Of a DNA stretch of 5,564 bases, positions 861 to 1,170 are shown piece after piece. The number at the start of each line of letters is the position of its first letter. Position 1 is the first letter of the stretch. Position numbers and translations under genes: made by a program. The notes beneath the pieces are model-generated. The model was not told the origin of the DNA. It searched no databases and saw only the letters and a list, made by a program, of their open reading frames with translations. The DNA is from a virus (Duplodnaviria; Heunggongvirae; Uroviricota; Caudoviricetes): the IMG/VR virus record IMGVR_UViG_2609460125_000012. One strand, given 5' to 3'.

Positions 861-935
861 TGGAGCGGGCAGCGGGAATCGAACCCGCATCATCAGCTTG
901 GAAGGCTGAGGTAATAGCCATTATACGATGCCCGC
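861..935 (-). tRNA. tRNA-Gly (anticodon UCC), 75 nt, CCA encoded
   Basis: Reverse complement GCGGGCATCGTATAATGGCTATTACCTCAGCCTTCCAAGCTGATGATGCGGGTTCGATTCCCGCTGCCCGCTCCA folds as a canonical cloverleaf with anticodon loop CUUCCAA and discriminator U73 typical of Gly. It appears identical or near-identical to host glyT as I recall it. Confidence 0.85.
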
Positions 936-938
936 ATA

Positions 939-1014
939 TGGTGCCGACTACCGGAATCGAACTGGTGACCTACTGATTACAAGTCAGTTGCTCTACCTAC
1001 TGAGCCAAGTCGGC
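939..1014 (-). tRNA. tRNA-Thr (anticodon UGU), 76 nt, CCA encoded
   Basis: Reverse complement GCCGACTTGGCTCAGTAGGTAGAGCAACTGACTTGTAATCAGTAGGTCACCAGTTCGATTCCGGTAGTCGGCACCA has a 7-bp acceptor, GCTC/GAGC D-stem, anticodon stem ACTGA/TCAGT with loop CUUGUAA, and GTTCGATTCC T-arm. It resembles host thrU. Confidence 0.85.
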
Positions 1015-1016
1015 AC

Positions 1017-1093
1017 TGGACCGCCACCGGGGACTCGAACCTCGCACACTCAACTTAAAGGGTTGACGCTCTTTCCTGATGAGCTAGTGGCGG
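1017..1093 (-). tRNA. Atypical tRNA or pseudo-tRNA, anticodon position reads UUU (Lys-like); C33, C1:G72, U73
   Basis: Reverse complement CCGCCACTAGCTCATCAGGAAAGAGCGTCAACCCTTTAAGTTGAGTGTGCGAGGTTCGAGTCCCCGGTGGCGGTCCA has a perfect 7-bp acceptor, perfect D-stem GCTC/GAGC, perfect anticodon stem TCAAC/GTTGA and GGTTCGAGTCC T-arm (one A.C mismatch). The anticodon loop is CCUUUAA, so the near-universal U33 is replaced by C. Confidence 0.5.
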
Positions 1094-1094
1094 T

Positions 1095-1170
1095 TGGTGG
1101 CCCTTGCTGGATTTGAACCAGCGACCTGGCGATTATGAGTCGCTCGCTCTCACCACTGAGCTAAAGGGCC
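1095..1170 (-). tRNA. tRNA with CAU anticodon, most similar to tRNA-Ile2 (lysidine type, ileX-like) rather than elongator Met
   Basis: Reverse complement GGCCCTTTAGCTCAGTGGTGAGAGCGAGCGACTCATAATCGCCAGGTCGCTGGTTCAAATCCAGCAAGGGCCACCA is a canonical cloverleaf with anticodon loop CUCAUAA. It is close to my recollection of E. coli ileX (GGCCCCTTAGCTCAGTGGTTAGAGCAGGCGACTCATAATCGC...). Confidence 0.8.

Follow-up and report, generated by a model that had tools for sequence, protein, structure and literature searches.

We analysed a window of 5,564 nucleotides (nt) from the Caudoviricetes record IMGVR_UViG_2609460125_000012 of the IMG/VR database. The window, i.e. the whole stretch of DNA, represents a lambdoid prophage of Escherichia coli (best RefSeq match 99.6% identical over positions 337-5160) and carries four tRNA genes packed on the minus strand between the gene of the late antiterminator Q and a class II holin gene. 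This array is real, common and already annotated; the lambdoid tRNA module of which it is a variant is known. As judged by sequence comparison, its gene with the anticodon UUU is an anticodon-shifted arginine tRNA of the phage module and not a copy of a host gene. We consider the chances about even that this gene encodes a working lysine tRNA, which would probably evade defence nucleases. Such a reading is based on homology, on the equivalence of the gene's slot in related arrays, on a conserved cloverleaf and on sequence constraint, all of which were observed.

The four-tRNA array

The coordinates obtained with ARAGORN agreed exactly with those of an original prediction made from the sequence alone, as did the very short spacers (1-3 nt; in transcription order A, GT and TAT). 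The array consists of:

1095..1170, minus strand: tRNA-Ile2, anticodon CAU (ARAGORN; Rfam 72.5 bits; PGAP tRNA-Ile)
1017..1093, minus strand: argN-family tRNA, anticodon UUU, tRNA-Lys by anticodon (ARAGORN; Rfam 44.4 bits; PGAP tRNA-Lys)
939..1014, minus strand: tRNA-Thr(UGU), host thrU with A9G (ARAGORN; Rfam 72.5 bits)
861..935, minus strand: tRNA-Gly(UCC), identical to host glyT (ARAGORN; Rfam 64.9 bits)

All four genes scored above the curated threshold (29 bits) of the Rfam tRNA model RF00005. The CAU anticodon of the Ile2 gene is read as AUA after lysidine modification, and the gene is 92% identical to the Ile2 genes of the host. The UUU gene (Rfam match spanning 1020-1093) had been described as the third gene, which is correct when counting from the left on the plus strand; in the direction of transcription it is the second, and its position is referred to below as slot 2.

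The three peculiarities predicted for the UUU gene, i.e. C33, the C1:G72 pair and U73, are all present in the 1017-1093 sequence. A perfect fold in three arms had also been predicted; this holds for the acceptor, D and anticodon stems, and the T stem contains a single mismatch (A51.C63). Of the conserved tRNA core, U8, A14, G18-G19, the T loop GUUCGA, a 7-nt anticodon loop and an encoded CCA are present, but U33 is replaced by C33. The anticodon loop reads C32-C33-U34-U35-U36-A37-A38 (CCUUUAA; CUUUUAA in the host tRNA-Lys), in which U34-U35-U36 followed by A37 constitutes a lysine-type anticodon. The discriminator base is U73, where both the host and the phage T5 tRNA-Lys have A73. Minimum-free-energy folding produced no cloverleaf for the UUU tRNA, nor for the genuine Ile2 and Thr genes, and was uninformative.

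Relationship of the array to the ileZ-argN-argO module

The original prediction held that the array is not the ileZ-argN-argO set of Stx phages. Our comparisons contradict this view, since the CAU gene and ileZ of the Stx2a phage F349 (AP012530) agree at every base and the UUU gene is a member of the argN family. The latter shares with argN the C1:G72 pair, U73, the T loop and the A51.C63 mismatch; because of this family membership, C1:G72 and U73 are to be regarded as inherited scaffold traits and not as signs of decay. The UUU gene is 84% identical to argN, whose anticodon was identified by ARAGORN as Arg(UCG), and 91% identical to a group of Arg(UCU) relatives, from which it is separated only by C33, the UUU anticodon and A51.C63 (a mismatch that argN(UCG) also has). 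The Stx module, as found in F349, likewise lies between Q and the late and lysis genes, with ileZ first and the argN-scaffold gene second. The window array differs in that slot 2 reads UUU, with C33, instead of UCG, and in that Thr(UGU) and Gly(UCC) replace argO (UCU); the pair of arginine tRNAs of the Stx module (UCG and UCU) is not present.

In order to survey sister arrays, IMG/VR was scanned with the shared T-arm/acceptor motif and the 120 loci obtained were analysed with ARAGORN. The layouts identified were (i) Ile2-Lys(UUU)-Thr-Gly (69 loci), (ii) Ile2-Arg(UCU)-Thr-Gly with the same slot-2 scaffold (21 loci), (iii) Ile2-Lys(UUU)-Arg(UCU), typical of the O157 PPompW prophages (7 loci), (iv) Ile2-Arg(UCU) (6 loci), (v) ileZ-argN-argO (2 loci) and a few others. 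The UUU allele is therefore commoner than the Arg(UCU) allele in the Thr-Gly arrays (69 vs 21), and the PPompW layout is intermediate between the Stx module and the window array. The sister arrays of the Ile2-Arg(UCU)-Thr(UGU)-Gly(UCC) type (e.g. L010) have the four slots, the slot-2 scaffold and the anticodon stem (UCAAC/GUUGA) in common with the window, but their slot-2 genes carry the loop CUUCUAA, an A51:U63 pair and G73 or A73. The window gene and its nearest Arg(UCU) counterpart are distinguished by 7 of their 77 bases; two of these changes, U33C and C35U, convert the loop CUUCUAA to CCUUUAA. When forms of this arm that combine U33 with UUU, or C33 with UCU, were sought as intermediates, the viral-contig matches were only to non-tRNA sequences.

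These relationships suggest that, with ileZ retained, the coding of the argN-family slot would have switched from Arg(UCU) to Lys(UUU) through U33C and C35U, and that argO would have been replaced by the host-type Thr(UGU) and Gly(UCC) genes. A change of tRNA identity by point mutation of the anticodon is an established phenomenon, known as tRNA gene recruitment. The present case resembles it in that an arginine-type body carries a lysine anticodon (C35U) and, at five loci, a threonine body carries UUU (G35U); it differs in that the change has taken place within a cassette of a phage and together with the unusual U33C. The latter five loci (L051 3480-3555, L075, L094, L098 and L111) contain in the Thr slot a gene with a thrU body and the anticodon UUU (G35U plus A26G), which scored 74.2 bits and for which 6 complete E. 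coli genomes carry a PGAP annotation as tRNA-Lys. Slot 2 of these arrays is always occupied by a damaged UUU allele or by Arg(UCU), never by an intact slot-2 Lys gene, and the thrU-body gene is a second, independent switch to UUU. The slot-2 scaffold itself seems prone to anticodon change. We also observed this scaffold as a solitary gene of 78 nt with a different D arm, called Ile(UAU) by ARAGORN (L018, L021, L126), and as a copy with an unclear anticodon (L080).

Alignment of the array genes with host tRNAs revealed no host copy of the UUU gene, and it bore out the predicted resemblance of the other two genes to thrU and glyT: the window Gly gene is identical to glyT (75/75) and the Thr gene matches thrU at 75 of 76 positions, with A9G as the sole difference. 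It had also been noted that tyrU, which separates these genes in the host operon, is missing, and this is literally true. However, we rejected the notion that the host thrU-tyrU-glyT operon was simply captured and then lost tyrU, because the similarity to the host locus (L006) starts and stops exactly at the ends of the mature tRNAs and the spacers are unrelated. The sequences are compatible with either gene conversion from host copies or the precise capture of mature-tRNA-length segments. The Thr copy of UUU-type arrays is usually identical to the host gene, and that of 21 of the 23 Arg(UCU)-type arrays (e.g. L010 455-530) carries U16C and U20C in the D loop. In 11 related arrays, the acceptor stem of the Gly-slot gene (e.g. 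L051 3402-3476) has changed at two positions in a compensatory manner (C6U together with G67A), which points to purifying selection on the phage Gly copy.

Distribution and annotation

The novelty ascribed to the array did not survive database comparison. At least 80% of window positions 840-1200 is present in approximately 600 of 5,426 complete E. coli genomes, the cassette is annotated in RefSeq by PGAP as tRNA-Ile/Lys/Thr/Gly, and the whole array occurs in three GenBank phage records. A member of the slot-2 scaffold family was found in 2,132 of the complete E. coli genomes. The exact UUU/C33 anticodon arm was detected on a tRNA only in E. coli and Shigella flexneri when 185,579 species representatives were compared; the 17-nt pattern of this arm gave 71 matches in genome contigs, all of which, except those in these two species, were due to chance. 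Within the limited literature searched, nothing usable was found on ileZ/argN/argO or on lambdoid tRNA-Lys genes.

Sequence constraint on slot 2

In the alignment of the slot-2 family, 96.6% of the cells were paired, as compared with 29-54% in slid controls, and four pairs (3:70, 27:43, 30:40 and 51:63) had changed on both sides. Two neutral yardsticks were used, since Q was gap-free at full length in only 2 loci. The diversity of slot 2 was 0.010 vs 0.129 at the 4-fold sites of rusA (24 loci), and 0.0165 vs 0.076 at the 4-fold sites of the holin gene (49 loci). The window allele is thus 5-13 times less diverse than neighbouring synonymous sites and is not freely decaying, with the reservation that the genealogies of the mosaic flanks may be deeper than that of the cassette. 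The diversity of the Thr and Gly genes was 0.007-0.013, that of slot 2 being within approximately 2-fold, and the number of segregating sites in slot 2 (10) was similar to those of the neighbouring tRNA genes (9, 11 and 8). C33 and the UUU anticodon were retained in all 88 UUU copies examined, and the whole anticodon loop was unchanged in 86 of them. The Rfam score of the window allele (44.4 bits) is comparable to that of the accepted argN (43 bits).

Codon usage and lysine supply

Codon usage of the late genes of one array-carrying phage was compared with that of 35 host genes (values per 1000 codons):

ATA: 5.4 in phage late genes, 3.6 in the host
ACA: 11.5 in phage late genes, 7.6 in the host
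GGA: 15.1 in phage late genes, 8.1 in the host
AGA: 6.2 in phage late genes, 1.2 in the host
AAA: 36.1 in phage late genes, 33.7 in the host

This comparison, proposed in the original prediction, accounts for three of the four tRNAs: supplementation fits Ile2, Thr and Gly, and most of all the Arg(UCU) tRNA of the sister arrays, but not Lys. Because AAA is used at nearly the host level and the median number of tRNA-Lys genes in E. coli is 6, the shift from Arg(UCU) to Lys(UUU) is hard to explain by codon supply. Two further possibilities were rejected. Charging of the UUU tRNA by arginyl-tRNA synthetase is discounted by the loss of C35, a major arginine identity element, although A20 has been kept. 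Lysogeny dependent on a tRNA gene (PMC10865867) is discounted by the median of 6 host tRNA-Lys genes; moreover, in one related prophage record the tRNA gene adjoining the integrase is tRNA-Ser and not tRNA-Lys.

Parallels with targets of defence nucleases

The nuclease AriB of the PARIS system cleaves tRNA-Lys at U36AAUC|A41, and its activity is abolished by U39A and impaired by A41C and U16C (PMC12409363). The UUU tRNA of the window has C16 and G39-U40-U41, whereas the verified host tRNA-Lys has U16 and U39-C40-A41; as read from the gene sequences, the phage tRNA differs from its host counterpart at every mapped AriB determinant. The substitution U16C is also the one that was observed in the Thr copies of the Arg(UCU)-type arrays. 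A second nuclease, PrrC, cuts tRNA-Lys 3' of U33 (PMC2610378), and the window tRNA carries C33 at this scissile bond. Rescue from PrrC170 was obtained with a phage tRNA-Lys but not with that of E. coli (PMC11555353). Data showing no effect of U33C on the gamma-toxin (PMC2275089) were set aside, since this enzyme is directed against yeast and has no bearing on PrrC. The non-host body, the four differing AriB positions and C33 at the PrrC bond are the grounds on which nuclease escape of the UUU tRNA would be expected.

A close functional parallel is phage T5's tRNA-Lys(UUU), which allows escape from PARIS (PMC11464382, PMC12409363). Both are phage-encoded UUU tRNAs with a non-host body, C16, and non-host bases at positions 39 and 41, beside the cut between 40 and 41 (A39-C40-C41 in T5, G39-U40-U41 in the window). 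They differ in the discriminator (A73 in T5, U73 in the window) and in context, as the T5 gene is one of 23 tRNA genes in the array of a virulent phage and its role in resistance and rescue was demonstrated experimentally, the T5 tRNA-Lys alone being enough for T5-123 or Bas33 on PARIS+ cells, whereas the window tRNA is known from its sequence.

Other lambdoid phages (21, SfI, HK446, BTP1 and relatives) also carry tRNA genes between Q and the lysis genes. These Q-proximal tRNAs are Asn(GUU) and/or Thr(UGU) with non-host scaffolds changed at positions 39 and 41; they are other tRNAs on other scaffolds, unlike the window array, in which Thr has the host sequence. The Q-proximal Thr(UGU) of HK446 rescues HK97 and HK542 from the P2 OLD tRNase; Thr(UGU) and Gly(UCC) rank among the top targets of this enzyme (preprint 10.64898/2026.07.10.737580). 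For the UUU tRNA of the window, these nuclease parallels are suggestive, and they lose weight because the Thr and Gly genes of the window have host sequences and E. coli Thr(UGU) does not rescue from OLD.

Proposed function and alternative explanations

In the proposed mechanism, transcription of the array would yield a single precursor, in which RNase P would cleave at every 5' end. The decoding of A-ending codons over-used by the phage would be boosted by Ile2, Thr and Gly. The main identity elements recognized by lysyl-tRNA synthetase are the anticodon bases, above all U35, and this enzyme would charge the UUU tRNA, which would then decode AAA and AAG. The non-host body may allow it to escape nucleases directed against tRNA-Lys, so that late translation would be sustained while the host tRNA-Lys is being destroyed.

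The original prediction asked whether the UUU gene is a pseudo-tRNA or a specialised tRNA, which proved to be the right question. Several observations weigh against a working, nuclease-evading lysine tRNA: C33 replaces the near-universal U33, which the T5 tRNA-Lys keeps; the T stem contains the A51.C63 mismatch; the discriminator is U73 and not the A73 of the host and T5 tRNA-Lys; and the Rfam score of 44 bits is 12-14 bits lower than those of the Arg(UCU) relatives (56-58 bits). Furthermore, two other alleles, one with a deletion of U12 (delta-U12; O157 PPompW prophages) and one with U8C+C11U (plus G18A in strain ETEC6334), gave no match to the tRNA model at an expect value of E<=1, and PGAP leaves the sampled copies of both unannotated. 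In complete genomes, the 95-99% identity band that holds the damaged alleles comprises 472 records vs 279 of the window type, the former number being probably inflated by clonal O157 genomes, while the window type dominates the IMG/VR sample. The frequency of failing alleles implies that any selection is weak or conditional, and the low diversity of slot 2 could also result from a young cassette spreading by recombination. Finally, E. coli Thr(UGU) gives no rescue from OLD (preprint 10.64898/2026.07.10.737580). As the Thr and Gly genes of the window have host sequences, evasion is not what the cassette as a whole is built for, and evasion of OLD by the entire array was rejected on these grounds.

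Many of these facts would be accounted for if the gene were a pseudo-tRNA, an Arg(UCU) gene disabled by C35U, U33C and the T-stem mismatch that persists between useful tRNAs. We regard this as the main alternative explanation, possible though not probable. Besides C33, A51.C63 and the reduced score, it is favoured by the core lesions (delta-U12, U8C, G18A) of widespread lineages that fail the tRNA model while their neighbours are intact, by the fact that, in the larger sample, slot 2 is about twice as diverse as Thr and Gly, and by codon usage, which gives no reason for a Lys tRNA. The fold of such a relic may still be required for RNase P to free Ile2 at its 3' end and Thr at its 5' end, since the spacers are only 1-2 nt long. 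It is less easily reconciled with a window allele that exceeds the Rfam threshold, is called tRNA-Lys by PGAP and scores as well as argN, with a diversity 5-13 times below that of adjacent synonymous sites, and with a lysine loop that is perfect save for position 33 and almost invariant (86/88 copies). Nor would a relic be expected to outnumber its Arg(UCU) ancestor, or an independent UUU switch to occur in the Thr slot of precisely those arrays whose slot 2 is damaged or Arg. On balance, the window allele leans moderately towards a specialised tRNA, and the two other common alleles lean towards pseudogenes.

An ordinary additional lysine tRNA, serving Lys-rich phage genes without any connection to defence and with C33 as a neutral, tolerated change, seems improbable. 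It is true that AAG is enriched 1.6-fold in the phage late genes and AAA 1.5-fold in the early genes (relative to the 35 host genes), that the Thr and Gly genes of the array are plain dosage copies of host genes, and that the thrU-derived UUU variant, which keeps a host-like anticodon arm (A31-CUUUUAA-UCA), could only add supply. However, AAA and AAG are not rare codons in a host with a median of 6 tRNA-Lys genes, with the loss of Arg(UCU) the tRNA best justified by codon usage (AGA, approximately 5-fold) is sacrificed, and the differences from the host at every AriB determinant and at position 33 are left unexplained. The idea that a variant tRNA-Lys alters -1 slippage at a Lys-Lys site of the tail-chaperone G/GT genes is more unlikely still. 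Slippery sites of the A AAA AAG type, such as that of dnaX, do depend on tRNA-Lys(UUU), and the array-carrying phage ON470580 (L201) has a G-like gene that ends ...GUU AAA AAA AAG UAG, beyond which the -1 frame stays open for a long distance:

approximately 5865-5880 of ON470580 (L201), minus strand: tail-assembly chaperone slippery site, G/GT type

Nevertheless, many phages that lack a tRNA-Lys gene rely on the host tRNA at such sites, an effect of C33 on slippage is without support, and the observation concerns one genome only.

Genomic neighbourhood of the array

The position of the array between Q and the holin gene (S), stated in the original prediction, was confirmed. The gene order in the matching RefSeq locus is hokD, DUF968/YdfU, RusA, Q, tRNA-Ile, tRNA-Lys, tRNA-Thr, tRNA-Gly, class II holin and lysozyme. 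The following features of the window were identified around the array:

1364..2059, minus strand: late antiterminator Q, directly upstream of the array in transcription (open reading frame (ORF) list; RefSeq 'bacteriophage antitermination protein Q')
1352..1380, minus strand: promoter-like TTGCAA-17-TATATT overlapping the Q end, candidate late pR' (consensus scan only, 9/12 matches)
1272..1301, minus strand: intrinsic-terminator hairpin AAAACCCGC...GCGGGUUUU with a U run, in the gap between Q and the tRNA genes (fold and scan)
1180..1208, minus strand: second promoter-like site TTGCAA-17-TATTAT, ending approximately 10 nt before Ile2 (scan and conservation)
809..854, minus strand: long hairpin directly 3' of tRNA-Gly, with an 11-bp outer stem GUCUUUCAGUC/GACUGAAAGAC (fold)
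353..568, minus strand: class II holin, first lysis gene downstream of the array (ORF list; RefSeq locus annotation)

This layout of Q, terminator and promoter-like sites suggests that the array is transcribed late under Q antitermination, possibly with the addition of its own promoter. The hairpin at 1272..1301 (-16.8 kcal/mol, z = -4.18; none of 200 shuffled sequences was equally stable) would be a tR'-like site that is passed by Q-modified polymerase. The hexamers of the promoter-like site at 1180..1208 are at least 90% conserved across 89 arrays, where neighbouring columns reach 50-80%, and are the best-kept part of the mosaic upstream flank; the site may act as the array's own promoter, permitting Q-independent expression in lysogens. 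The hairpin that follows tRNA-Gly (-24 kcal/mol, z = -2.16; columns 60-90% conserved across arrays) is a possible processing or attenuation element, and a U run is located beyond it, near 780-790.

Further observations concern the surroundings of the arrays. The Q gene is an intact ORF of 231 codons in the window and is frameshifted in the best RefSeq record, whose match breaks off at position 337 of the window, where the holin/lysozyme junction forms a mosaic boundary. A match to the sok antitoxin RNA was detected at 4072-4247 on the minus strand (118.9 bits; threshold 59); together with hokD in the matching RefSeq locus, it identifies this region as a hok/sok type I toxin-antitoxin locus. 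Just upstream of the Arg(UCU)-type array of L010 (positions 1478-1893), Rfam matches to isrK, to the C4 antisense RNA with its a1/b1 targets and to sRNA-Xcc1 were obtained; these RNAs, of a P1/P7-like immunity type, occur here in a lambdoid context.

Implications

It is tempting to propose, though we hold this only tentatively and think it rather unlikely, that lambdoid prophages of E. coli and Shigella have made a rare-codon arginine tRNA into a non-host lysine tRNA, with C33 at the bond cut by PrrC, directed against defences that cut tRNA-Lys. More broadly, the Q-adjacent tRNAs of temperate phages would then form a counter-defence cassette against OLD-family TOPRIM tRNases of rival P2/P4 elements. 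The proposed set would include Lys(UUU), Thr(UGU) and Gly(UCC) of the window, and Asn(GUU) and Thr(UGU) of phage 21, SfI and HK446. The targets of PARIS are Lys, Thr and Asn tRNAs, and those of P2 OLD are Thr, Gly and others.

If the UUU gene is instead a relic, the result would call for caution in annotation, as the PGAP tRNA-Lys calls in hundreds of genomes would inflate lysine tRNA gene counts. If the proposal is correct, escape from anticodon-arm nucleases by means of tRNAs would extend beyond large virulent phages with big arrays (T5, T4) and would also proceed via small temperate-phage cassettes, which over a tenth of E. coli genomes contain. The UUU tRNA would then be a rare functional bacterial tRNA with C33, and its origin would represent a natural change of tRNA identity by an anticodon shift under the pressure of defence.

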